From a virus (lineage: Duplodnaviria > Heunggongvirae > Uroviricota > Caudoviricetes), in IMG/VR virus record IMGVR_UViG_2870495154_000004, positions 1 through 51,251 of that record: a stretch of 51,251 nt of DNA. The stretch is one strand, 5' to 3'. Every line of letters begins with the position of its first letter. The first letter of the stretch is position 1. A model generated the notes under the pieces. That model was not told the origin of the DNA. It did not search any database and saw only the letters and a list, made by a program, of their open reading frames with translations. Made by a program: the position numbers and the translations under genes. Below are positions 1-49,883 of this stretch, in pieces.

Positions 1-249
1 TCATCTGATCTGTATCCAGCAGAGAAGGTCACTTAACAACCATCCGCAAGATTTCTTTCCGATAGACTTACGTGGTGGAAATGTTCCCTCCCGTTCAAGT
101 TTCCACGCTTGTGTACGAGAAATTGACGTGATCTCATATCGTTCCTTTTCACGTACCAGTCTGTCGCATTCAATCCCATAAGCTTTCAAAATGACCAGAC
201 GCTGTTCATCTGTTAATGGAAGCCACATACTACCCTCCTGATATATCAA
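1..249 (-). CDS. AlpA-like small DNA-binding regulator (phage/island transcriptional regulator family)
   Basis: 82-aa ORF; the C-terminal GWLLSDLLCWI segment resembles the AlpA/Xis-type HTH family; lies outside the prophage in AT-rich flank. Confidence 0.45.
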   Translation of the reverse strand: MIYQEGSMWLPLTDEQRLVILKAYGIECDRLVREKERYEITSISRTQAWKLEREGTFPPRKSIGKKSCGWLLSDLLCWIQIR

Positions 250-918
250 TACTTTTTATTTCCGGCATGAGCATGAAATGACTAAGTTTCCCGGATAAAC
301 AATGAGTGAAAGTCACTATCATTCATCCAGTCAACACCTTACAAATAAAATGTAATACTATGATTTTTATAGGTCAAAATACTGAATTGAAATGTCAAAA
401 TGGCTTTTAATGGAAAAAATAAAGACATATAGAACCAAATAAAAACAATCCGCGACCAATAAAAACAAAAATTAATATTAAAAATCCATTATGACGATTT
501 TTGTTGACTAAAATTAGGTTGGGATATATAAATAAATCCATGTAAAATTCAAACAAAGCATGGAGGAGTCGCAGGAAGGTGAAATATTTCCATCTAATTT
601 GTGATAATCATCACAAAAATAAGCTACAACAAGCGGAGGAAAAGACAATCTGTTGCTGAACAGACAGAAGCAGGCTACGAATGATCGGAAAATGAAGCAA
701 ATACGCTTATACAGAAGACGCAGAGGTAACTGACGGAGACAATCACAATCAGGAGAAAATTATCGTAAATAATGTATAAAATCTCAGGATATAAACAAAT
801 GTACACAAGCTATCCACGTAATCAGCGGCTGGCTCAGGATTAACGTTTCATTTCAGTGGACAAGATCGATTCTGTCTGACAGCGGACCAATATGTAGCAA
901 GCAGAAACTTCTGACATC

Positions 919-2550
919 ATGGTAACTCGGACAATGCAACAAAAGTATCAGTATGATCGTGTTTTATCCGGCGAACTCCACCCATTCCCTGGCATATACG
1001 AGGCGGTTTCCGAACAAATCCTTTTGCTCATTTTTAAAGCACGTCAACTATATCAGGATCCAGAATATCGCCCCTGGTTTGAAGAACAGCACAGAGTACT
1101 CTCTGCATTACGTGCCAATACAGAGCTCCTGAGAATCTTTAGAGAACAAAGAAGCGCTGAAGAACCAAAGCTTACTATTGAAGAGTCTACCTCCCCCCAA
1201 CCCACTCCTTCTGCTCTTACAGATGCGCTTAATGTGATGTGCCATTTATACAATGGTTTTGATGAAGGAAATATCAGTCTGAAAACTTGGGGGGCGATGC
1301 AAGAGGTACAGACAACATCAACCTTTATCAGCCCAGGAACGAGAACCTGGAAAACACCTGAACTGGCAAAGTTTGTAGGAGATGATTTATTTAATATTCT
1401 GACTGAATGTAAGGCCTGGAGTTCACCAATTCCAGCAGAAACCCGACAGGGGTATTGCCATCAGGATCTGTCTGTTGCGCACTCCTGCACCTCAGAGTTG
1501 CTGGCACACCTGAAGCAGTATCATGAAATAGATGAATCAACAATACTTGCCATAACAATTGGTCTGGCGGTTAACGAATTCTACCAGAATAAGCAAAATA
1601 TTCCAGAATGGCTTTCCTGTTTTGAGAATAAGAACAAATGGCCCTGGGACTGCAGGAAGTCAGATACTGAAGATGTGCACAGACTGAGAGAACGACTATC
1701 GATAATCGGATGTACAGAATTCGTAAAAAATATGTTTTCAGTCGCCAGTCAGCGTGAAATACAGACAATGTACAATATTTATGTCCATATTTATGCAGCT
1801 GAAATCTGTGGTTGGGTAAAAACAAGTATGGCGTATTTTAAACCAACAGATTTCATCCAGTACACATGGAAATTCGCAACAGTTACTCCGGATAAAGATG
1901 AAAAAACCGAGAATACGACCGCATGGGAAAGGGATTATTGTCAGATAACCATACAACGAGATGAACTCCTTAGATTGATTCGCACTAATACTCTGCAGGA
2001 TGCCGCAATTCATCTTTCAGGCTGCCTGCAATATGCATATCTGGAGTCAGTAAAGCATGATATTGACTATCCAGGAATAGCCCCTAATGCTGAAGAAAAG
2101 AAAATGAAACACACAGATTCTATTGAATTTTCTGGAATTCGGAATAACATCATAAATGCAGTAAAACGGCTAGAATCATTTGAAAAATGGTATGAAACTA
2201 ATAAAGTTTTGTTGGTAAGTAATAAAAAAATACGAACAGAGAAGATTGACGTTGTTGTACGACTTGCAGGACTGAAAGCCTATGATTTGCAGGAAGGGGT
2301 TCCGGAAGGTCTGAAATGGAAAGTTAAAGATGGCATAAATGAACGCATCAAAACCGATACCAGTTTATGCCTGCCTCAGGATATCAGTGATACATCGCTA
2401 AACCGTTATCGTCACGCTGTGACGCGCATTGTCAACAACGAAATCGACACATTACTGATGGAACAGAAGAAAAAAAATAAAAGATTCCCCTACAGCAAAG
2501 ATCGACATGCGATCCAACCTTTATGGAGCAAATGCTTGATCGAGCAGTAG
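919..2550 (+). CDS. hypothetical protein, 543 aa, no recognised domain
   Basis: long uninterrupted ORF preceded by about 670 bp of very AT-rich leader; no motif recognised by eye. Confidence 0.5.
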   Translation: MVTRTMQQKYQYDRVLSGELHPFPGIYEAVSEQILLLIFKARQLYQDPEYRPWFEEQHRVLSALRANTELLRIFREQRSAEEPKLTIEESTSPQPTPSALTDALNVMCHLYNGFDEGNISLKTWGAMQEVQTTSTFISPGTRTWKTPELAKFVGDDLFNILTECKAWSSPIPAETRQGYCHQDLSVAHSCTSELLAHLKQYHEIDESTILAITIGLAVNEFYQNKQNIPEWLSCFENKNKWPWDCRKSDTEDVHRLRERLSIIGCTEFVKNMFSVASQREIQTMYNIYVHIYAAEICGWVKTSMAYFKPTDFIQYTWKFATVTPDKDEKTENTTAWERDYCQITIQRDELLRLIRTNTLQDAAIHLSGCLQYAYLESVKHDIDYPGIAPNAEEKKMKHTDSIEFSGIRNNIINAVKRLESFEKWYETNKVLLVSNKKIRTEKIDVVVRLAGLKAYDLQEGVPEGLKWKVKDGINERIKTDTSLCLPQDISDTSLNRYRHAVTRIVNNEIDTLLMEQKKKNKRFPYSKDRHAIQPLWSKCLIEQ

Positions 2551-2642
2551 AGAACTGAGGGGATAACCGTTCTGTTATCCCCTGTTTATTCTGCCAACTC
2601 TCAGGTCTGTCAGAGTTCCAAGAACACGATGCGGCTGGCAAA

Positions 2643-3158
2643 TTATGCGGCTTTTCCATTAACAGATTCGGCCACAAGAACAACACCGTGTTTATTTCGA
2701 TCAGGATGTTCACTCCAGATTTCTGATACAGGAATACTTTCCCCGTCATAGCAGATCCGATCGCCATCAAACGGATAATACCGTGCGGAATCAGTATCTA
2801 AAATAAACACTTTCAGATTCGTTGAACGACGCGCTATATGCTACCAGAGGGCTTTACCTCCTTCATATTGCTCGTTATCACTTAATAGTATAACGCCCGC
2901 TTTTGTGGCTATCGTTTCATAAACAAACGTCGCAAGGCCAACATCACGTACAGCGCCATCGACAACAATCCCTTCAATCTGAGCAACGTCCTGTTCTTCC
3001 CAGAATTTCCGGACAAACACCCCTTCAAGCTGTGAACGACGCTGAAGCTCCAGAGTGGCAACAACCTTATGGCGAATATCACCATCAATAACAGAAGGTG
3101 CAGCTTCGATTACCGCAGCGAACGGAGTCTTTGGATCCCAGATGATCTGGTAAAGCAC
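2643..3158 (-). pseudogene. ORF interrupted by a single in-frame amber codon (105 aa + TAG + 66 aa in the same frame)
   Basis: 105-aa ORF ends at TAG (2841-2843); the same frame stays open for 66 more codons to a TAA at 2643-2645. Confidence 0.35.
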
Positions 3159-3531
3159 ACCCTGAATAGTTACTCCATCCAGTATCGAAAAAGACGAGCT
3201 ACAGTAGCAGGGGAGTAAGACATTGGAATGACAGCCATTTTATGGCCTAAAATTTGAAAACATTAGTATCAATACTGACCTCATCAGTCTGAGCATATAT
3301 TGATAAAGTTTTTATGTTTACACTCAATAAATACCTTGCCAAACAACTAATAGCGATGTCTACATTGCCATTCGACATGCTTACAATTTTTGTCAACAAG
3401 AAAGTCAATTTATATCAACGATAAGAAGTAAACACGAGGACACCAAAACCAAATGTACACACTTTTGTGCTTTGTGTCCCCTGTGTGTACCCAAATGACA
3501 AACTGCAAGAAAATCTAGGCACACACTTATC

Positions 3532-3594
3532 TAACTTATTGATTTAAATGGTGCCGATAATAGGAGTCGAACCTACGACCTTCGCATTACGAAT
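3532..3594. repeat. att core copy distal to int (63 bp; carries the 3' 46 nt of tRNA-Thr plus 17 bp)
   Basis: exact 63-bp direct repeat of 49791-49853; flanking sequence diverges on both sides. Confidence 0.85.
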
Positions 3595-4133
3595 TATAAG
3601 AATCCGCTTCTAATTCAAAGCATTACCCCATCAACACTGCGCTCACACGTCCCACCACATCAAAACATGTAAAGCCTTGCAAGCCATTGCGAGGCCTTAT
3701 ATGTCTCAGTTTTGTCCCACCTTGTATTACGACTTGCATAGCCAATGAAGATAAACGTAACGACAAACGGCACTGCAGTCTTCTTTTCTTTCACGACTTC
3801 CCCACACCCAGCATGCATACCTTTCTGCCACAACTGTAGTGAATGTCTGTTATGAGCGAAATATAGTCATTGACTACCGAATCTCTTTTCGCCGAAACGC
3901 GCTACTAAATAGCTAGCGCGTGCGCAATGGCACGTTAGTGCTGATATACGTCAGGAGTAAAGCGTGATGTAAATTTTTCTGATGAATTTTCAGAATGTAT
4001 CATCCGGGCTTACCGATGGCAGTGTCGTTTCGGCTCAAAAAGGTGTGAAATATAAATAGCAGCGCTGATGTTTAAATAATTATCAAGTCTGGCATGATGA
4101 GAGAGAAACTTAACTTATGCGAGGATCGCAAGT

Positions 4134-5504
4134 ATGCTGAATCTTATCGTTGTCGGAACCCCCAAATACTACACTTTTTTTTCTGAACCCAGTGGCAATG
4201 ACTCTTTCCCTGTGTCGCGACTCTTCGAATCCACGCCAGAGTCTCTTAGAAGCAGATTGCTTCCCCTGACTGAAAAAACCTATCATTTTCTTCAGGAACT
4301 GCCCGTTGTATTTATGTCCGAGCCGGAAATTGAATTCGATGAAGATAATGAAAAAATAGGTTATTTCAGCCACATCCGCTTAGGAAAAATCAGCAAGATA
4401 AGTACGTCCGTGTATAACAGAGAAAAAGTTTTAGCGTTTGATTATGAGATTACCAGTGATATCGGCTACAAGCCCTTAACCAGCGATAAAGAGTACGTAA
4501 GTGAGCTGGAGCTGGGCAGTTTCGGACTAAACAGAACGTTCTGGGCGGTCAAAGAGATTTCCGTAAATGAGATTCTGCGTGTTTTAGGCCTTGAAGGCTA
4601 TTCTAATGTTGAGCCCGCAGCAGCGAGTGCGGAAGCACCGGAGAATAATGAAGAACTAGAGATCATTGCGAATATCAATCAGTACTTGCAGGTGATACTC
4701 GATCATACACAGGGAAACGATGAAGAGGTATTTTACCGCGGTCACTCGGACATCAACTACCAACTGGAACCCTCACTGTTCCGCAAGGATACTCAGGGTA
4801 ACTATCGCTACCGCCATCACGAATCGGACATGATAACAGAGCTGCTGACCGTGCAGCCCGCCGAGTTCAAAGACGATCGGTATATGCTAGATAAACTCGT
4901 GCGCATGCAACACTATGGCCTACCCACACGCCTGCTTGATGTATCAACAAACCCCTTGATCGCACTATATTTTGCCTGCTCTAAAATCAAGCACGATGAA
5001 AATAATCATGAAATTGACGGGAACGTCATTATTCTGACGACGCCCAAAAGTGAAATTAAGTTTTTCGACTCGGATACCGTAAGTTGCATAGCCAATCTTT
5101 CCCGTCTTCCCTCTCGTTTCAAAAGCAGCCTGAAAACTAATCTCACCATTCCGGCGTTTAACGAATCTGAAGAGTGCGGACAACTACTACACCTGATCCG
5201 CGATGAAAAGTCCTATTTCAAAAGCATCATCGATCCGGTCCACCTAAGTAAAATTGTTGTGGTCAAAGGTCGGCTCAGTAACGCACGTATTTCGTCCCAA
5301 TCAGGCGCTTTCCTGCTCTTTGGTGAAAACGTAGACCTACCGGAAACGGGACTCAGTACGCTGAACATCAAAAAGCTTGTTATTAGAAACAAAGAGCATC
5401 TGATGCAGCAACTGAGCCGCCTTGGCATTAACGAAAGCACGGTGTACCCCGGCATTGAGAAGGCTGCTACGGAAATTGCAAAACTATACGATGGACGAAT
5501 CTGA
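4134..5504 (+). CDS. FRG-domain protein with an uncharacterised N-terminal domain
   Basis: 456-aa ORF; C-terminal half carries the FRG signature (VFYRGHSD...YQLEPSLFR...QHYGLPTRLLDVSTNPLIALYFAC); SD-like GAGGA upstream. Confidence 0.6.
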   Translation: MLNLIVVGTPKYYTFFSEPSGNDSFPVSRLFESTPESLRSRLLPLTEKTYHFLQELPVVFMSEPEIEFDEDNEKIGYFSHIRLGKISKISTSVYNREKVLAFDYEITSDIGYKPLTSDKEYVSELELGSFGLNRTFWAVKEISVNEILRVLGLEGYSNVEPAAASAEAPENNEELEIIANINQYLQVILDHTQGNDEEVFYRGHSDINYQLEPSLFRKDTQGNYRYRHHESDMITELLTVQPAEFKDDRYMLDKLVRMQHYGLPTRLLDVSTNPLIALYFACSKIKHDENNHEIDGNVIILTTPKSEIKFFDSDTVSCIANLSRLPSRFKSSLKTNLTIPAFNESEECGQLLHLIRDEKSYFKSIIDPVHLSKIVVVKGRLSNARISSQSGAFLLFGENVDLPETGLSTLNIKKLVIRNKEHLMQQLSRLGINESTVYPGIEKAATEIAKLYDGRI

Positions 5505-5645
5505 TAGCGCTTTAGTCGCACGGCACGCCTGTGTGCCAGCGTGGGCCCATAGCCGCTTTAATCGCCGTGCAGAATGCAGTTTTCAGGTAACTTCAGAGAA
5601 ACAAGTGATCTCATTTCGTTGTATTTATTAGCTGCGGAGTCATTA

Positions 5646-6698
5646 ATGGAAAGAATCAAGAGGAATCCCGAACGATTTGAAGCCTTTGAGCTTTTTTCCT
5701 CGTTGGGCCAGATCTATAATTACGATATTAAAAACCCCGAGCACCAGGATGACTTTATACAAAAGGTCACCACGTCATTAATCGCTTCCCATCAGAATCC
5801 AATTCTGCTGAACGGGAAAAGAATAGAAAACCTATTTAAACACGTTTGCGCCGCACTGAACCACTGCCAGTTTCTTAAACAGGAAGACGCCGGAGACTTG
5901 ATGTCAGCCGATCCCGATCTGGTGGCACCTGACTATCGCATTATACTGAAGGATCGCCGTCAGATCTTTGTGGAAGTAAAAAACTTTAACGCGGATGACG
6001 TGGCTGACGATTATCGCCTGAAGAAATCGTACAGTGATAAGGTTGAAAAGTACGGTGAGCTCCATGGTATTCCAGTTTATTATGCCATCTACATCAGGAT
6101 GCTGCGCCGGTGGGCGCTGGTTGCACGCTCCTCAATGAAGGAGCTAGAGCGTGAACATACCTTGACGCAGGCCTCGGCGCTCGCAAAAAGTGAGATGTAC
6201 CTGCTGGGCGACCTATCGATAGCAACAGAACCCGATCTGGTTTTTGAGCTTATCCCCGACCGGACCAAAGAAGTTTCAGTTAGTCCCGAAGGCATCGCCC
6301 ATTTTACAATTGGCGAGATTAAAATTTACTGCAATGACAGACAAGTAACGGATAAATTTGAAATGAACACGGCGTTTCATCTGATGCGCTACGGAGAGTG
6401 GCTCTGCCCCGGATCGGAGGCAATATTCACTGATGGTCAGCTTGAGAGCATCCGATACACATTTTCCCCGGAAGACGACGAAAATTACAAAAGACAGGGT
6501 TTCGACTTTATAGGTACGCTGAGTTCGCTGGTCACGTCGGCCTTTAACGAGCAGACTGTACACGACAGCCAGATCAGGTCAGTTGACACCCGGCAGAATG
6601 TCAGACTTTTCACGGTAACCATCCCTGATGATTACAAAGGGGGAGGCCTGCCTCTGTGGCGTTTCTCAATGCGGCCAAACTATGAATTTACCGATTAA
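5646..6698 (+). CDS. PD-(D/E)xK nuclease-fold protein (restriction-endonuclease-like) with an unknown C-terminal domain
   Basis: ORF with GGAG 6 nt upstream of ATG 5646 (track ORF opens at 5574); motif order E...PD...(14 aa)...EVK in APDYRIILKDRRQIFVEVK. Confidence 0.5.
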   Translation: MERIKRNPERFEAFELFSSLGQIYNYDIKNPEHQDDFIQKVTTSLIASHQNPILLNGKRIENLFKHVCAALNHCQFLKQEDAGDLMSADPDLVAPDYRIILKDRRQIFVEVKNFNADDVADDYRLKKSYSDKVEKYGELHGIPVYYAIYIRMLRRWALVARSSMKELEREHTLTQASALAKSEMYLLGDLSIATEPDLVFELIPDRTKEVSVSPEGIAHFTIGEIKIYCNDRQVTDKFEMNTAFHLMRYGEWLCPGSEAIFTDGQLESIRYTFSPEDDENYKRQGFDFIGTLSSLVTSAFNEQTVHDSQIRSVDTRQNVRLFTVTIPDDYKGGGLPLWRFSMRPNYEFTD

Positions 6699-7174
6699 GA
6701 GTAATAGTGAGACATTTAATCGGGATAAATCGCTCGATAATTCGTTGCTACTTCAACAACTTATAAATGAGAAGACCCAGCCTAATAACCTCACAATCAA
6801 CTTCATTGCGGATCCCCAAAGATAGACGGGCATAGGCGGCTTTTTATCACCTAAGCGTCAGCGCAACATAAATGATCGGGTCAATGGAATGACCTGTTCC
6901 CCGTTAAACAACACAGATGGTTGTTAGCCACTTCCGCACTTGGCATGACTTGTCCCACCGTTTGATACGTTACTATCTTAGTAATGTCCGCTTCTGGCAC
7001 GAAGCTATCGTAGGTTAGGCCCAAGGACAGCTTTAAGCGAGGAGCGGACGCTGAATTCGAATTCATCGTAAAAATTTTTATGGCCAAGTAGCTCTATAAG
7101 GCCTTTCATTAAAGCTATCTTTGTCGCAAAGCTTATGCAAAAAGTTACTTTATCTTTAAATCTAATAAGATAAC

Positions 7175-7990
7175 ATGATTGACGAAACCCCAAAATCAAC
7201 TTTACTTAAGCAAAAACGAGGCATGCAATTGAAAAAGATTAGGAAAATCAATAAAAAAATTATTGATGAATTGCTATCTCTTCGCGAATCAAGAGGAGCT
7301 ATAGAAGACTTCTCAATGTCTTTCCTACTAAATTTTGCAGAAAATTGTCGACTTATGCATTCACTTATTTCAACGAAAGATAAGAAAATAGATATTTATA
7401 AAACAGCATATCGACAATATTTTGTATTTCTAATCAGTTGCTGGGAAACATATTTTAGAGACGTTTTTGTTTTCGTGCATTCAGTTGATGAATCTAGAAT
7501 TACAACACTACTATCTAAAATGAGAACAGAAACATCTATCAATATAAACACTGAGATAAATCTATCAGAGTTATTGAGTAAAAGCTTTAACTTTCAAAAC
7601 TTAAACGACCTTGAAGAAGCATATAATGGCATGTGGGGTGAGAGTTTTTTAAACTACATATGTACAACTAATATATCTCCTTGCGGTCTGAGTGGCCAAA
7701 TTTCCCAAAGCTTATCGATAGAAAATATATTTCCAGACTGGAGAGCCCTCATAGAGGAAGCATTTTACATTAGGCACAAAGTGGTTCATGATGCAAACTT
7801 CAGACCTAAAGTCAACATTGAATTAATCAGTAAGGTAGAGGCTTTGTTTTTAATAATCCCACAATTTGCAACGCATATCATATCAGAAAGATTCAACTTA
7901 AAAAAAATCGTCATTTCAGATGGTAAAAATAACCATACCTATATTTTCAATATCAGTGATATATTATCTGATGATTGGGTTGTTAGTTGA
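7175..7990 (+). CDS. AT-rich hypothetical protein with HEPN-like Rx4H motif (candidate RNase / abortive-infection protein)
   Basis: 271-aa ORF in markedly AT-rich DNA; C-terminal motif YIRHKVVHD fits the HEPN Rx4-6H signature. Confidence 0.4.
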   Translation: MIDETPKSTLLKQKRGMQLKKIRKINKKIIDELLSLRESRGAIEDFSMSFLLNFAENCRLMHSLISTKDKKIDIYKTAYRQYFVFLISCWETYFRDVFVFVHSVDESRITTLLSKMRTETSININTEINLSELLSKSFNFQNLNDLEEAYNGMWGESFLNYICTTNISPCGLSGQISQSLSIENIFPDWRALIEEAFYIRHKVVHDANFRPKVNIELISKVEALFLIIPQFATHIISERFNLKKIVISDGKNNHTYIFNISDILSDDWVVS

Positions 7991-8648: not shown

Positions 8649-8973
8649 GGTAAATCAGGCTTCTGGCGCATTACAGAAAAAACAGAACGGCGCAGATATT
8701 CCAGGAAAAGATACCTTCACCAAAAATATTGGTGCCTGCCGCGCATATAGCGCATGGCTGAATATTGGTGGCGATAGTCAGACCTGGACAACTGCACAAT
8801 TCATTTCGTGGCTGGAGAGTCAGGGGGCATTTAACCATCCTTATCATCCTTCCTCAAGTCGTTAATCGCGTGCGTAGCCAAACTCAATACATCAACATGT
8901 CGAAGCATGATCTGCCCTCCCATATACTGTTTTTATATACAGCGGTTGCACTTTAAAGGCAGATCAATAGCTG

Positions 8974-9801
8974 CTACGGAAAGGTAGACGGATTTGTTGG
9001 GATCGTGTCGCCATAGTACTTCCCGCCTGAACTGAATCGCCTGTTAAAGATATCCTGTTCAGACGCCGTGGCCTCTGCCATGGTCATACCTGCTGCAGTG
9101 AGATCGATAAAATGCCATCTGTAAAGGACGTATGAACGACACAAATTGTTCAGTAGCGTACCGAAACCGCTAGGTGACCCCCAAACCATATGGTCGTAGT
9201 AGGCAGTTGCGACAGCCATATCTGTGCCTGTTTTTGCTGACGCTTGAGATTTCAGGGCTGGATTACCCGTCAACCCTCCATCCAGACTGGCAATCAGCAA
9301 CTTATTATTAGATGGAGCTGAGTTATGCGACATCAACACTTCTACAGGGTTCTGGCTCGTCGATGACGGCTTATCTCGAGTAATACGATGATGCACAAAC
9401 ACTGCGAACTGATGATCATTCTGATGTGCAACAACGTACGGCAGGATGCCAGGGCAGCGGAACCGGGCCAGGTGGCCAGATACCTGATTGACCTGAGAGA
9501 CTATGCCATGAATACCAAGCTTTGGTGTTCTCTCAAACTTAACTTCAGTGCTACCAAGTGTGTTTGAATACTTAAAGGCCAAATCAGCCTGCGATACGCC
9601 AGTTAAAGTGGCGGCTGGAATCGCGGCTAAATTTGGCGTTGTCGATATATCAGTACCTGTCGCTGATAAATTAAAATTTTCATCTACTTCATAAGCATCC
9701 AGCAGCCCAAGAGACCCATCAGTTAACCCAGGGTACGGATAAAAAATAGGCATTCTTGAATCTGTAAAATTAGCTCCATATAAAGGATTGGCGCGGCCCA
9801 T
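8974..9801 (-). CDS. hypothetical protein downstream of the tail fibre gene (possible tail-fibre-associated protein; not Tfa-like)
   Basis: 275-aa ORF immediately following stf on the same strand; no motif recognised. Confidence 0.4.
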   Translation of the reverse strand: MGRANPLYGANFTDSRMPIFYPYPGLTDGSLGLLDAYEVDENFNLSATGTDISTTPNLAAIPAATLTGVSQADLAFKYSNTLGSTEVKFERTPKLGIHGIVSQVNQVSGHLARFRCPGILPYVVAHQNDHQFAVFVHHRITRDKPSSTSQNPVEVLMSHNSAPSNNKLLIASLDGGLTGNPALKSQASAKTGTDMAVATAYYDHMVWGSPSGFGTLLNNLCRSYVLYRWHFIDLTAAGMTMAEATASEQDIFNRRFSSGGKYYGDTIPTNPSTFP

Positions 9802-9811
9802 ATTTTACTCC

Positions 9812-12800
9812 TCAAAAGAAAAAGTTATTGTTAAGCATTCCTGCAAGACCTTCGCTGGATGATATTGTGGAAAAACCTGATCCACCATTCGCAAGCGCAA
9901 GACCACCTGTGTTACTAAGGTGTGTCCGGTCTATTGATTTTTCAGACCATACACCGCCATTATTGTAAATAATGTTTCCAACTGTTCCGCCACCTATCCT
10001 GATGTAGTAATCCATAGAACTACCACCAGTTGGTAATACTGTGTCACTCCATGTACCTTTGTATACCAGGTCGTTTGTTGTGAACCCTGTAAATGACCCG
10101 CCATTGAAAAATGACCAGGGTAGAACGCCATAAGTAACAGCAACTTGTTTTTCGGTCATGCCCGGGAAAGTAGGATCAATTGCGTCAGTAGCAGCAGAAA
10201 GCATATTTTGGTATACGTTAAAGAAACGTCCTGGAAATATTCTTCTGTACCATTCTCCAAGCTCGTAAAGAACACCCGTTTTAGCGTACTGGTCCTCATG
10301 CTGCTGTACAACAATTCTTGAACCGTTCCATGTCTCTGTCCTTTGCCCCATAATTGTCAGGAATATATATCTGGCATCCCTGGCCCCAACCAATGCAGCC
10401 ATTTCAATAGAATCCTGCCTGATTTGTGCAGCATTTAAATCAGTTGTCGGCTGGTTATTTTGTCCGTGCCAAAAGCAGATGACCTGTCCGGCATAATTAT
10501 CCCCGTTAACAAGAATTTCCTGCTTTAACATACCGAGGACCTGATCGGAAGTAGAGCCGCCATAGGAGCGGACCTCCCCGGGCACGCTCACCTCTGAAAG
10601 GATTTGGTTGCCGGAATTTCCACTGCCGAAAAGAGAATCCCCGATCAAGAGAAGCTTACTCCCAAGAGATTTACGGATTGTCGTCATCACCTGAGCTTTC
10701 AGCCTTACACCGACAGGGCCAGAGCTCTTATCAGAACGCCGAATTTCCCACTCGTCAGAGTTTTGACTACAACGTAGGCTGATAGAGCTGCCTGCAGCAA
10801 CAGTAACGGATGCCTGACCTGCTATGCGAATCCACGCGGAGCCATCCCAGAGAGCGTAATCTCCGGCAGAAAAACTATTTCCTGAAATGGTACCCGCTGC
10901 GGATGCCTGATAAACCGAATTACGCAGTGGACTAGCAGGATAACCAGAGGCAGGAGCAAACTCCCCTGCGTAAACCAGTGCATCACTGGCTGATGACAGC
11001 AATACCCATCGTGGAGTCATGGATGCGCCACCGGCAGTTTGCAGTCCTGTATAGAGCAATTTGTCCCCTGCCTGCAGCGCCATGCCGTTGAACGTCCCAG
11101 CAGCAGTCACCTCATACCAGCTGTCCGCGATTTTAATCACACCGGTGCCCGGCCCACGCTGGATGACGAACTCTGTACCATTCCAGACAAGATTGTCGCC
11201 GCAGTACAGGCTCTGACTGCCCCAGGTGCCCGGTAGTGTCTCGGAGAGGTTTCCGTTTGTGTTATAGGCCTCGTAGCTATAGTAATCACCGACAGCAAAC
11301 GTCCCTGTCGGCGTGGTAACTGCGGTGGTGAGAAACCGCCCTTTTTTCGTCAGCGATGGCACCGCGCCTGGCGTAAACACGCCAGCCCGCGCTTTCCCGG
11401 TGAACAGCAGCCCGCTGGCCTGCCGGTATTCAATCGCGGTGCCGGTCGCATTAATTCCGAATGCGGCCTTACACACATGCGACGGCAGCGGAGACCAGGC
11501 AGAGCCGTCGCGTGCATTGGTCCGCACCGCGATTTCGGAGAGCGTTGAGCGCGTTGCATCCGGGCGGGCATCTACAACATCCTGTGGGTGTGCAATAATT
11601 TTATTCTGTACATCTTCAGTCAGCGTTGAGAAGCCGACGATGTCATCACCCAACAGAAGACGAGAAATAAATACATCGCCATCTGTCGTCACATAGCTGG
11701 ACATCCGCTTTGTCACCGGATCATAGTCGACGCTGACATAACCAGTATCAGGGTCAAGGTCCAGTGGAATGACCTGCTGAACTTCTGTGGAAAGTTGTGA
11801 GTTCCCGACGCTATTCTCAGGGACCTGTAGCAAGGGAATAAAAACCTGTCCATCCGTTGTGGTATATGAAGACATACGTCTGGTTACCGGATCGTAGTTG
11901 ATTTCTGAAAACCCAGTATCAGGGTCCAGTTCCTGAGATAAAATACTTTGAACATCCAGCGAAAGTTTTTCTGAGCTTACTGAGCCATTTTGAATATTAT
12001 TTCCAGTGACTGCATTTTCAGATAATTGCAGCAAAGGGATAAACACACGACCATCACGCATAGTGAACTTAGACATGCGCATGGAAACTGGGTCATATTC
12101 AACATCAACAATATCGAGACCATCATCCAGCTCAGTTGAGATTAATCCCCTTGATGCAAGATCATCAATATACCCCTTGGAAATCATTACCCGGCCAGTG
12201 GCAGATAATATCCCTGAATTATTGATAACTTCTATTGCAAGATATTTGTAATCGGAGTCTCGGTAATAAGCTGTTGACCCAACAGGAATATTGCCAGCAT
12301 CTGCGTCTGCCTGTGCCGCCGCCAGCGTCGGAAACTCGCGGATTGTCCCAGTTATAGCCGCTGTGCCTGGCTCAGAAGCCTGCAACACAGCTACGCCATC
12401 CTGGTTCTCGTAGGTTTTGAATGCCGCCGTCGCTTCCGGACCTTCCGCTACGCGGAACGACTGTCCGTTGGTCGTAGCAGCAAGGCCTGCAATTGTACCG
12501 TCCGGATCGCTCGGCGTTTTATAGAACGTGAACTTATTCAGCGCATATTCAGAAGCATTGCTCGCGAACTCTTCGGCCTGAGAGGCAGAAATAGCAGCCT
12601 CTGCCGTGTTCTGTGCCACCGCGGACGCGTTACGCGCCACTTCTTCCACCATCAGCTCAAAACGGCGCAGTGCCTCCGGACGGGCATCATCCTCCGTCAT
12701 GGCACCGAGAAAATCATTCAGCGTACCGGGTCGGGAATCTTCATACACGGTGATAATTCCGGCATGTGACGGCGGGAATCCCTCCACCAACAGAATAACG

Positions 12801-41820: not shown

Positions 41821-42758
41821 CCCCTGAATCCTGCCGGGATCTGGCTGTAGTCCACGTTGTCGTAACTGGCTTTGAAGTACGGGTCTTCGCGTTTTTCGGT
41901 GTACGTGCTGACGGACGGCGATAAGCGCAGGGAAAGCTCATCCCATTTTTCCCGCAGCTTCGACGGGCTGAGCACGTTACGGCACCAGAACGGATCGCGG
42001 CTGACGCGGCTGTACATCTCGCAGATTTGTTTGTGAGTACGACCATCCTGCACACACATCAGGCGAATTTCGTTTGCCCAGGCTGTCCAGTTCGGTTCTT
42101 TGGGACGAACCACCTCGCCGTCACATTCGGCGGCCTGCTCGTACAGGGCGATGATTTTTTTCCAGAGCCACTGTGCGCAGGTCAAATCATCCTGCGTTCC
42201 CCACTGGCGCTTTTTAGGGCTGAATACAACCGCATTAGGATGGCGAGTTAAAAACTCCTGTTCAGCCGTCTGCGTGTCCGGTTGCGAAGCGTCCGGACGA
42301 GAAGTTTTTTTATCTGACGGATCATGTTTTGATTTTACTGACGGATCCCCGCCAGATTCTGACGGGTGAAAACCCGCTTTTTTGCCAGATTTCGACGCAT
42401 CAAATTTTGACGGGTCAGATTTTGATGCGTCAGATTTTGACGGGTCAGAATCTGACAATTGAGAAAATGCCGCTGCCTGAAGCTTCGCAACGTTAAGCTG
42501 ATAAACATTCGACGCATTGCGGTTACCCTGGCGACGCGCCTTACGCGTTAACCAGCCTTCTGCTTCCAGCCGTGCGATAGCCGTTCTGACGGTACTCATC
42601 CCCGCGCCAATCTGACGGGCAATGGTTTCAATTGATGGCCAGCACACACCTTCGTCATTACTGAAATCAGCCAGGCGGGCCATAATTGCCACGCTGGATA
42701 ATTTCATGCCTGACGCAGCGCAACCATCCCATACATAGCCGGTTAATTTAGTGCTCAT
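41817..42758 (-). CDS. replication initiation protein, lambda O-like N-terminal HTH, with internal iteron-encoded repeat
   Basis: N-terminus MSTKLTGYVWDGCAASGMKLSSVAIMARLADFSNDEGVCWPSIETIA is Phage_rep_O-like; internal SKSDASKSDPSKFDASKS repeat. Confidence 0.75.
   Translation of the reverse strand: MSTKLTGYVWDGCAASGMKLSSVAIMARLADFSNDEGVCWPSIETIARQIGAGMSTVRTAIARLEAEGWLTRKARRQGNRNASNVYQLNVAKLQAAAFSQLSDSDPSKSDASKSDPSKFDASKSGKKAGFHPSESGGDPSVKSKHDPSDKKTSRPDASQPDTQTAEQEFLTRHPNAVVFSPKKRQWGTQDDLTCAQWLWKKIIALYEQAAECDGEVVRPKEPNWTAWANEIRLMCVQDGRTHKQICEMYSRVSRDPFWCRNVLSPSKLREKWDELSLRLSPSVSTYTEKREDPYFKASYDNVDYSQIPAGFRG
42386..42457. repeat. replication origin iterons (five tandem ~15-bp repeats inside the O-like gene)
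   Basis: tandem CAGATTTTGACGGGT-like units; same arrangement as lambda ori. Confidence 0.6.
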
Positions 42759-48403: not shown

Positions 48404-48753
48404 TGGAGCCATACAGCCTCACACTCGATGAGGCCTGTCATTTTCTCAAGATATCCAGACCGACTGCCATTAACTGGATACGCACAGGGCGTCTTCAGGC
48501 AACACGCAAAGATCCCACTAAGAATAAATCTCCTTACCTCACAACACGACAAGCCTGCATTGCGGCTCTTCAGTCTCCGCTGCATACTGTCCAGGTGAGC
48601 GCGGGTGATGGCATAACAGAGGAAAGAAAATGTCACTCTTCCGCAGAGGTGAAATATGGTACGCCAGTTTCACATTGCCGAACGGTAAAAGATTTAAACA
48701 GTCTCTTGGAACAAAGGACAAAAGGCAGGCGACAGAACTCCATGACAAGCTAA
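48403..48753 (+). CDS. xis: excisionase (P22 Xis-like HTH)
   Basis: [33 protein letters not shown] directly upstream of and overlapping int. Confidence 0.7.
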
Positions 48754-49793
48754 AGGCTGAAGCATGGCGGGTCAGCAAACTTGGTGAAATACCTGATATA
48801 ACGTTCGAGGAAGCGTGTATCAGGTGGCTTGAAGAGAAAGCACATAAAAAATCACTGGACGATGACAAAAGCCGGATCGGATTCTGGCTTCAACATTTCG
48901 CAGGAATGCAACTAAGAGACATTACTGAATCAAAAATTTATTCAGCAATGCAGAAAATGACGAACCGGCGTCATGAGGAAAACTGGAAACTCAGGACAGA
49001 AGCATGCAGAAAAAAAGGGAAACCTGTTCCAGAATACACGCCAAAACCAGCGTCCGTTGCAACGAAGGCTACGCATCTTTCATTTATAAAAGCCCTACTA
49101 AGAGCCGCAGAGCGTGAATGGAAAATGCTGGATAAGGCACCAATTATTAAAGTGCCTCAACCAAAGAATAAACGGATCCGCTGGCTGGAGCCCCATGAAG
49201 CACAAAGGCTGATTGATGAATGTCCGGAGCCATTAAAGTCTGTTGTTGAATTTGCACTGGCAACAGGCTTAAGACGCTCGAACATCATCAACCTTGAATG
49301 GCAACAAATAGACATGCAGCGCCGGGTGGCATGGATAAACCCGGAAGAGAGTAAATCAAACCGCGCAATTGGCGTTGCGCTGAATGATACTGCATGTCGC
49401 GTTTTGAAAAAACAAATCGGGAATCATCACCGTTGGGTATTTGTGTACAAGGAAAGCTGTACCAAACCAGACGGAACGAAAGCGCCAACAGTAAGGAAGA
49501 TGCGGTATGACGCAAACACAGCCTGGAAAGCGGCGCTGAGACGGGCTGGTATTGATGATTTCAGATTTCACGACTTGAGACACACCTGGGCAAGTTGGCT
49601 GGTTCAAGCCGGAGTCCCGTTGTCAGTGTTACAGGAAATGGGAGGCTGGGAGTCTATCGAAATGGTTCGTCGATATGCTCACCTTGCACCTAATCACCTT
49701 ACCGAACACGCACGGCAAATAGACTCGATCCTGAACCCATCGGTCCCAAATTCGTCCCAGTCAAAAAATAAGGAAGGTACTAATGATGTGTAA
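48630..49793 (+). CDS. int: tyrosine integrase, P22 Int-like, thrW-specific
   Basis: 387 aa; arm-binding N-terminus and catalytic HDLRHTWAS...VRRYAH; stop codon is the first 3 nt of the att core. Confidence 0.9.
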
Positions 49794-49853
49794 CTTATTG
49801 ATTTAAATGGTGCCGATAATAGGAGTCGAACCTACGACCTTCGCATTACGAAT
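49791..49853. repeat. att core copy adjacent to int, overlapping the 3' 46 nt of thrW
   Basis: exact 63-bp direct repeat of 3532-3594. Confidence 0.85.
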
Positions 49854-49883
49854 GCGCTGCTCTACCAACTGAGCTATATCGGC
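49808..49883 (-). tRNA. thrW: tRNA-Thr (anticodon CGU)
   Basis: 76-nt cloverleaf ending CCA; anticodon loop TTCGTAA; next to proA. Confidence 0.9.

Follow-up and report, generated by a model that had tools for sequence, protein, structure and literature searches.

Two islands of Escherichia coli K-12 are the closest described counterparts of the element considered here. CP4-57 resides at ssrA and carries its genes in an order which we take to be that of the K-12 map (intA–yfjH–alpA–yfjI–yfjJ ... yfjX, yfjY, yfjZ/ypjF); the RefSeq product names of the island described below agree with it. CP4-6 (in the MG1655 segment 260500–300500) is inserted at the tRNA gene thrW and is bounded by thrW and an attachment site (att) copy beside yagP. 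An island and a phage in tandem at one tRNA gene are a familiar pattern, and thrW also receives the Shigella phages SfIV, SfII, SfI and SfV as well as P22-like phages. This gene ranks among the most used tDNA integration sites of E. coli (PMC7545054), and the carriage of defense genes by elements at tRNA hotspots has been amply described (PMC10121019). Here we analyzed a 51,251-nt stretch of viral DNA (Caudoviricetes; IMG/VR record IMGVR_UViG_2870495154_000004, hereafter the window), in which a short AT-rich segment (positions 1–3531, hereafter the flank) lies to the left of the distal att copy of a thrW-integrated prophage. The flank holds an alpA gene, an intact gene for a 543-aa protein and a pseudogene for a 198-aa protein. 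An initial annotation had regarded it as part of a second, degenerate thrW-associated island, and our analysis supports this reading: with a probability of roughly 0.9, the flank represents the tRNA-proximal end of an old, decayed island of about 42 kb of the CP4-57/CP4-6 type at thrW. As such, the island is nothing unusual: it belongs to a known class, has decayed and occupies a well-known hotspot.

The prophage is bracketed by an exact 63-nt direct repeat consisting of 46 nt of the thrW 3′ end and 17 nt of downstream sequence. The first copy (49791–49853) overlaps the intact gene for tRNA-Thr(CGU) (thrW, 49808–49883), the single tRNA gene in the window, both on the minus strand and together spanning 49791–49883. 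The second copy (3532–3594, minus strand), in which the displaced thrW 3′ end occupies the 46 nt at 3549–3594, forms the boundary between island and prophage, and the distal att copy claimed by the initial annotation was thereby confirmed. The 46,259-bp insert between the repeats is a lambdoid prophage with tail genes. Its integrase (48630–49793, plus strand) is 98–99% identical to the Int proteins of SfIV, SfII, SfI and SfV and about 90% identical to that of the P22-like phage L. Likeness to these thrW integrants lies in the Int of the prophage and in the duplicated thrW 3′ end; the flank itself has nothing in common with them.

We joined the sequence left of the degenerate att copy at the far end of the island (see below) to thrW–proA and searched the resulting 785-nt reconstructed empty site (yagP′–native flank–thrW–proA) against 5426 complete E. 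coli genomes. The construct was recovered at 100% identity and in one piece from many genomes and was covered to at least 80% in 948 of the 5426. In these genomes, thrW directly abuts yagP′/paoD without any flank DNA. At the same coverage (at least 80%), the flank was present in only 343 to 350 genomes. The window is E. coli DNA, and its flank is 100% identical to the corresponding sequence of E. coli strain CREC-532. Since 948 genomes carry an intact empty site, we classify the flank as inserted DNA and not as part of the core. We found neither universal presence of the flank in E. coli nor thrW-empty strains that keep it at another position as syntenic, conserved sequence, and the idea that it might be conserved core chromosome in thrW-empty strains did not hold. 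That the flank is ordinary chromosome beside thrW which is AT-rich by chance appears next to impossible: the only point in favor of this view is the position outside the prophage att repeat, whereas, in addition to the above counts, the flank is contiguous with hallmark island genes and its G+C content is 10 points lower (40.4%, compared with 51.3% for the prophage, 50.5% for the whole window and 53.7% for the proA side).

We also considered that the flank could be a moron region of the prophage lying outside a mis-called att boundary. It does adjoin the prophage end, and the family of the 198-aa protein is represented in PHROGs and on P1-like phage-plasmids. However, the 63-nt repeat cleanly delimits the insert, the 543-aa gene had no homologue in 50,697 phage genomes, and many strains have positions 1–3594 joined to thrW without a prophage. 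In strain ECO11, for instance, this segment continues directly into thrW and proA. A moron origin is thus very improbable. The prophage junction itself was common to only three genomes among those listed.

Leftward of the flank, the sequence continues as an island of about 42 kb up to a third att copy beside yagP′. According to RefSeq, the island genes comprise, in order, alpA, a DUF3987 fragment, yfjI, yfjJ/yagK, a TOTE-primase fragment, fragments of the insertion sequences (IS) IS1, IS3 and IS5, a frameshifted reverse transcriptase gene, hhe, two DUF262 genes, a type I restriction-modification system, a GTPase gene, an Ag43 pseudogene, irmA, and genes for DUF932, antirestriction, JAB/RadC, DUF987, YeeU and CbtA. 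Beyond cbtA follow the truncated LysR gene yagP′, paoD–A, yagU and the ecp operon. The third att copy, located between cbtA and yagP′, reads AACTCTTTGATTTTAATGGTGC-GATAATAGGA and matches the thrW end plus native downstream flank at 29 of 33 positions with one gap. The layout is yagP′–att3 (degenerate)–island (~42 kb)–att2–prophage (46.26 kb)–att1/thrW–proA.

The leftward extension, which the initial annotation had proposed for finding an integrase and a further att copy, thus yielded the att copy but not the integrase. No tyrosine integrase is annotated across the island, and tblastn with the P4-type integrase of the closest related island returned only the prophage integrase, weakly, and no remnant within the island. 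Likewise, none is present in positions 1–3531; the sole integrase of the window belongs to the prophage. The lack of an integrase fits a decayed member of the class, and together with the many island genes flagged as pseudogenes it makes "degenerate" a fair label. Furthermore, we found insertion at a tRNA 3′ end with a direct repeat, an empty site in conspecifics, atypical base composition and the backbone genes, namely alpA (by Pfam) and yfjI/DUF3987, yfjJ/yagK, antirestriction, radC and cbeA/cbtA (by RefSeq annotation).

Outside the window, the island interior (L001 2184–11592 and L003 32589–38594) contains hhe, the two DUF262 genes, the type I restriction-modification genes, remnants of a second restriction-modification system and the frameshifted reverse transcriptase gene. 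Given several defense genes in this part, we read the annotation as suggesting that the relic still functions as a defense island. In strain A23, the att copy (L004 15550–15661) is called by RefSeq as a 112-nt "tRNA-Ser", which looks aberrant; beside it lie a different integrase, a dynamin-family gene and a TrbL-bearing element, which would represent a third kind of thrW occupant on the same island.

The alpA gene (1–228, minus strand) has its stop codon at 1–3, and its open reading frame (ORF) spans 1–228 or, from an alternative TTG start at 249, 1–249. Its product, a 75-aa helix–turn–helix (HTH)/AlpA regulator in RefSeq, matched Pfam PF05930 (Phage_AlpA, E = 2e-13) and PHROG 2790 ("excisionase and transcriptional regulator", E = 7e-23), so that the AlpA-like regulator seen in the initial annotation was verified. 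Judged by these matches, alpA is a predicted AlpA-family excisionase/transcription regulator and the first gene of the island's leftward operon. As the island has no integrase, AlpA is now an orphan excision regulator, and we infer that the island is incapable of excising or moving on its own.

The comparison with K-12 places the island close to CP4-57, which shares its backbone and gene order: AlpA, YfjI (DUF3987), YfjJ/YagK, antirestriction, RadC/JAB, DUF987 and, at the far end, the CbeA/CbtA toxin–antitoxin pair. In both islands, a gene divergent from alpA is found between the integrase position and alpA. This slot holds yfjH in CP4-57, whereas in the present island it is occupied by the 543-aa gene and the 198-aa GNAT-like gene. 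Moreover, the present island is located at thrW instead of ssrA, lacks an integrase and is heavy in IS elements and pseudogenes. CP4-6 shares the identical site and a number of families, i.e., ykfI/yafW (CbtA/CbeA), ykfH (DUF987), ykfG (RadC), yafZ (DUF932), ykfA (GTPase) and yagK. It differs in that it keeps intF and is devoid of alpA and of the 543-aa and 198-aa genes; K-12 as a whole has no member of the 543-aa family. In addition, its order is reversed relative to thrW, with the CbtA/CbeA end beside thrW and intF beside yagP.

Intact versions of the block formed by alpA, a ~540-aa gene and the 198-aa gene were found at nfeF (yqjH) in E. coli ST131, O103:H2 and other E. coli lineages, as well as in Salmonella, where the locus stems from a record that is filed among plasmids and carries chromosomal genes. 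At this site, the block is always followed by a gene for a 438-aa P4-type integrase (Arm-DNA-bind_3 + Phage_integrase). The integrase is located at the nfeF end, and no tRNA gene was found beside it. The thrW and nfeF-site islands share the block (int–198 aa–~540 aa–alpA in the latter) with 76–94% nucleotide identity and the same palindrome in the spacer (see below). Alignment of the window with one nfeF-site island (L018) showed 88% identity over positions 1–3242, and homology ended 4 nt past the start codon of the 198-aa gene. While the nfeF-site islands thus possess an intact integrase at another locus, the thrW copy has in its place an AT-rich junction of 289 bp (3243–3531) that is specific to this thrW island type. 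The junction occurred in only 278 of the 5426 E. coli genomes, and a distant-mode search of E. coli genomes for relatives returned the same 278 only.

It therefore appears that the alpA–543–198 block came from, or shares ancestry with, an nfeF-site island with a P4-type integrase, the integrase having presumably been lost by deletion or recombination at 3242/3243. Two histories, both of which leave alpA an orphan, fit these data. In one, the island lost by deletion an integrase that had stood between thrW and the 198-aa gene; in the other, recombination brought in the block from an nfeF-type island. In the latter case, an older CP4-6-type thrW island would have gained the block by homologous recombination in alpA, yfjI and yfjJ combined with an illegitimate join at 3242/3243, and the block would never have stood beside a thrW-specific integrase. 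The high identity that breaks off just beyond the start codon of the 198-aa gene argues for such a recombinant patch, as do the greater abundance of the nfeF-site version and its constant association with an integrase, the restriction of the junction to 278 genomes with nothing else matched, and the different content and opposite order of CP4-6 at the same site. On the other hand, the order thrW–[int]–x–x–alpA–yfjI–yfjJ...toxin–antitoxin is the canonical layout of CP4-57, the loss of an integrase beside thrW by simple deletion accounts for the observations equally well, and no donor–recipient pair was identified. We consider the import a serious possibility that falls somewhat short of an even chance; it concerns the history of the flank and not its identity.

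Two points weigh against the interpretation of the flank as the end of an island that decayed at thrW. First, with no integrase and a degenerate far att copy, past site-specific integration at thrW can be deduced only indirectly, from the repeats together with the empty site. Second, the closest relatives of the flank genes are found at another chromosomal site with another integrase, and the island end may be a recombinant patch instead of a product of decay in situ. Nevertheless, we regard the favored explanation as a whole, i.e., a decayed thrW island, a later insertion of an SfIV/SfV-type prophage and a 543-aa accessory module, as highly likely. According to this scenario, the island was formerly located directly against thrW. 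A lambdoid prophage of the SfIV/SfV type later entered the same tRNA gene (attB), restoring thrW and pushing the island 46,259 bp away from it. The 543-aa gene, finally, would constitute a self-contained accessory module with its own operator and terminator, moving among islands, integrative and conjugative elements (ICEs) and plasmids.

The 543-aa gene (919–2550, plus strand) is intact, in agreement with the initial annotation. It belongs to a rare, uncharacterized gammaproteobacterial family and is followed, 8 nt past its stop codon, by an intrinsic-terminator-like hairpin (2558–2583, plus strand; 10-bp stem, then a T-rich tail) between two convergent genes. The ratio of nonsynonymous to synonymous substitution rates (dN/dS) between E. 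coli alleles amounted to 0.36–0.48 and was below 1 in each of five segments, and the exact protein was found on 384 contigs, always named "hypothetical". Based on the dN/dS values, this recurrence and the separate terminator, we conclude that the gene is real and selectively maintained, having stayed intact though its neighbors decayed. Diversifying selection was considered and rejected: segment-wise dN/dS stayed below 1 throughout, and uneven dS pointed to allelic mosaicism.

Database searches with the 543-aa protein gave no match in Pfam or NCBIfam and a single non-significant one in PHROGs (phrog_28806, E = 0.06). No consistent match emerged either when all 41 members of the family were compared with Pfam at E ≤ 10, and the best hit of a profile search of PDB sequences had an E value of 0.36. 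The family is rare: a search of 5.8 billion proteins yielded 41 clusters, one of 1.84 billion proteins yielded 41 representatives, of which many are fragments, and seven loci were found among 185,579 species genomes. A profile built from 26 diverse members recovered these ~40 clusters and no further homologues. All members with a named organism are from Gammaproteobacteria. An AlphaFold2 model based on the family alignment (predicted local distance difference test score, pLDDT, 83.6; predicted template modeling score, pTM, 0.86) was mostly helical, with a small β element around residues 318–344 and 433–442. Foldseek comparison of this model returned best E values of 0.28 in PDB and 0.09 in BFVD, with template modeling (TM) scores of about 0.1. 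The sensitive homology and structure searches that had been advised for this protein thus brought up no known domain or fold. Twelve residues are invariant among 26 members down to 20% identity: E32, Q33, R42, D115, R176, Y179, H181, W317, D456, S490, R496 and Q516.

The 198-aa gene (2643–3238, minus strand) is a pseudogene. The amber interruption reported previously was located at 2841–2843 (TAG, where intact alleles have CAG), and comparison with the intact allele of strain A23 revealed an additional 1-bp deletion near codon 16 (~3192/3193). Members of the family (PHROG 7522) that are about 88% identical occur on P1-like phage-plasmids (P0109, i.e., gp016 of Salmonella phage SJ46). The match to Pfam Acetyltransf_1 (E = 0.05) remained below the cut-off. 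The top Foldseek matches of a structural model (pLDDT 70) were all GNATs, albeit weak ones (E = 0.026–0.3, TM 0.3–0.4); the segment R98-D-V-G-L-A103 fits GNAT motif A (R/Q-x-x-G-x-G/A), and one source names the protein N-acetyltransferase. On this weak evidence, the 198-aa protein probably adopts a divergent GNAT fold. Where the gene is intact, dN/dS values of 0.02–0.12 indicate strong purifying selection; in the lineage of the window it has become a pseudogene. An obligatory pairing of the 198-aa and 543-aa genes was rejected: P1-like phage-plasmids such as SJ46 carry a member of the former family on its own, and the homologues of the latter outside E. coli lack such a neighbor.

Homologues of the 543-aa gene reside in diverse genomic contexts. 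In Vibrio, the gene is placed between a P4-type integrase gene and alpA, in Aeromonas beside an integrase gene and a tRNA cluster. The Klebsiella and Citrobacter homologues are carried by IncF plasmids beside an operon for a cyclic oligonucleotide-based antiphage signaling system (CBASS), DUF4145 and AbiEii. The Pectobacterium homologue adjoins a type IV secretion system, and the one in Proteus lies between tra genes of an ICE. Those in Serratia, Atlantibacter and contig L022 form islets of two to three genes among housekeeping genes. Altogether, homologues were detected on 18 plasmid records, and 13% of the E. coli genomes matched at least part of the alpA–543–198 block. The initial annotation had put the gene forward as a candidate cargo gene of unknown function. 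In E. coli and Salmonella, however, this gene and the 198-aa gene are fixed companions of the P4-type integrase at nfeF and not free-floating cargo.

Outside the E. coli/Salmonella clade, the 543-aa homologue is accompanied by a divergent small neighbor about 330–350 bp away, of which we observed three kinds. The first is a very acidic protein of 136–149 aa, which is 65–72% identical across Vibrio, Klebsiella, Pectobacterium and Aeromonas, has a 69%-identical copy in Siccibacter and corresponds in position to a 149-aa gene on the Citrobacter plasmids. It matched no known family; it may mimic DNA or act as an antitoxin. Loci of this partner, all on the minus strand, include L007 9246–9656, L009 9215–9664, L011 465–914 and L012 9203–9652. 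The second kind is a Gly/Ala-rich protein of about 105 aa, usually together with an 88-aa protein and also present in Citrobacter murliniae. It had no Pfam or NCBIfam match and is probably membrane-embedded. Its genes are found at L005 9330–9653, L022 2274–2588 and L023 7346–7669 (all minus strand) and at ~3314–3642 in L029 and L031. In Serratia, Atlantibacter and contig L022, this partner is 79–84% identical, whereas the adjoining large proteins share only 37–44%, a difference that hints at a module of two or three genes in the ancestor. The third kind, a 118-aa protein from Proteus, is unrelated to the others. Searching the window by tblastn with the partner genes (acidic 149 aa, Gly-rich 105 aa, 88 aa and Proteus 118 aa) gave no match.

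The AT-rich leader of the 543-aa gene, put at about 670 bp in the initial annotation, proved to be a divergent spacer of 690 bp (229–918) between alpA and the 543-aa gene with 34% G+C and a core (300–620) of 27% G+C. At 600–615 it contains the perfect palindrome TGTGATAATCATCACA, the only instance of TGTGA-N6-TCACA in the 51 kb (0.07 expected) and a cis-element conserved in the gene family. Among the first 24 loci, 18 showed the palindrome exactly once per locus, upstream of the 543-aa homologue; in the loci without a perfect copy, the gene was absent or a single mismatch occurred in the scored half-sites. In a later genome scan, the palindrome was perfect in four loci, had one mismatch in Proteus and was absent only in Siccibacter. 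In E. coli and Salmonella it is situated 304–376 nt upstream of the start codon and 372–389 nt from the alpA start, while in the other clades the start codon follows 13–17 nt after its end, the two being separated by a GGAG Shine–Dalgarno sequence. Individual copies were located at ~9970–9986 (L005–L012), 8956–8971 (L021), 2907–2922 (L022), 7968–7983 (L023), 9653–9668 (L015), 4622–4637 (L018), 6573–6588 (L025) and 6735–6750 (L026).

A function of the palindrome as an RNA hairpin was rejected, as variants in its arms break the pairing without compensation. The element is thus predicted to be a protein-binding DNA site. The consensus for cAMP-CRP is AAATGTGATCTAGATCACATTT, and CRP is present in the gammaproteobacterial hosts of the 543-aa family. 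The site at 600–615 and its counterparts equal this consensus exactly in both half-sites and in the 6-bp spacing. CRP control of the 543-aa gene is the simplest reading of this match, and on the basis of the sequence we give it an even chance. Transcription would then be gated by the TGTGA-N6-TCACA operator, most simply through cAMP-CRP, and expression would follow the nutritional state. This reading is challenged by the location in most clades, where the short distance to the start codon is unlike a classical activator position and instead repressor-like or autoregulatory, as well as by the absence of the element in Siccibacter. The count of sigma-70 promoter matches within 1–3700 (8, compared with 10 ± 3.5 in shuffled sequences) was uninformative in this respect. 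Alternatively, a dimeric protein, perhaps the 543-aa product, could use the palindrome for autoregulation. As to the leader in general, we found no conserved small ORF between alleles and no coding remnant, and an Rfam scan of 1–4200 gave no match. A structured RNA was rejected based on a folding z-score of –0.77. Silencing of the leader by H-NS appears plausible from its base composition (27–34% G+C).

The arrangement of the spacer also bears on the possibility that the 543-aa protein, by analogy to Stl of the Staphylococcus aureus pathogenicity islands (SaPI) or yfjH of CP4-57, is a housekeeping regulator of the island that responds to a helper element by controlling excision or replication. 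Across E. coli, E. albertii and Salmonella, the gene is always divergent from alpA across a spacer of ~700 bp that places the palindrome at a near-constant distance from the alpA start, and it was kept although a neighboring gene decayed. Furthermore, the C-terminal segment ISD-SLQRY resembles, in our reading, an HTH recognition helix. However, no HTH family was matched at E values up to 10, and homologues exist without alpA, integrase or island, namely on plasmids, as ICE cargo and in the islets of Serratia, Atlantibacter and Citrobacter. Hence, we consider a regulatory role of this kind rather unlikely.

Because the family is confined to mobile elements, occurs sporadically, lies in defense-rich neighborhoods and has variable small partners, we tentatively propose, at clearly less than even odds, a role of the 543-aa protein in conflict between mobile elements or with phage. 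The product would serve defense, exclusion or addiction, and the invariant R176...H181 site may be what it acts through. Several observations speak against such a role. The neighborhood evidence is anecdotal, because genes of many classes are found in the cargo slots of mobile elements. In no region of the 543-aa gene did dN/dS exceed 1. In addition, a scan of the protein against PADLOC-DB v2 returned no defense family at E ≤ 0.1, while the positive control in the same scan, the prophage gene at 4134–5504, matched PDC-S15 with an E value of 8e-99.

A specific version of an effector function would be a HEPN-like RNase that acts as a toxin or abortive-infection effector, with R176-x4-H181 as its catalytic motif. 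The motif R176-QGYC-H181 indeed fits the HEPN spacing Rx4-6H; R176, Y179 and H181 belong to the invariant set, and the model places the motif in an all-α region at a loop–helix junction. The defense-rich contexts and the variable partners, which are acidic or putative Gly-rich membrane proteins, would also be compatible with this assignment. Yet no HEPN Pfam family was matched at E ≤ 10 in the 41 members, no HEPN structure was among the Foldseek PDB matches listed, and an Rx4-6H motif is short and can arise by chance. Moreover, the E. coli clade carries the gene partner-less, which argues against overt toxicity. We thus regard a HEPN-like effector as improbable. The farther-reaching idea that the 543-aa protein founds an undescribed mobile module, i.e., a new, nutrient-state-gated system for defense, exclusion or addiction, with the E. 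coli copy as a partner-less derivative, is speculative and on balance unlikely. Under this hypothesis, the protein would be soluble and mostly α-helical, with a modeled fold unlike those in PDB and BFVD and a catalytic-looking invariant R...Y.H/E/D set, and the gene would always travel with its own CRP-type operator and usually a small divergent partner.

Two features of the prophage itself were noted in passing. Just inside its end, beside the distal att copy, the above control gene (4134–5504, plus strand) encodes a 456-aa FRG-domain protein of the PADLOC candidate family PDC-S15 and is followed by a gene for a 374-aa protein of unknown function (5574–6698, plus strand); this pair looks like a defense moron. 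Within the prophage, positions 42386–42460 comprise four tandem 15-nt units similar to CAGATTTTGACGGGT, which are iteron-like and possibly represent a replication origin or an operator array.

The locus illustrates stepwise accretion at a single tRNA gene, where an old, immobilized island was followed by an SfV-type phage, a routine feature of genomes. The boundary map with its three att copies and the empty site allows for the correct annotation of about 280 E. coli genomes with the same junction. The part most worth following up is the 543-aa gene: being intact, under purifying selection, restricted to mobile DNA of Gammaproteobacteria, extremely rare, structurally unmatched and tied to a conserved CRP-type operator, it is, as a single gene, a tractable lead to a possible new accessory function.

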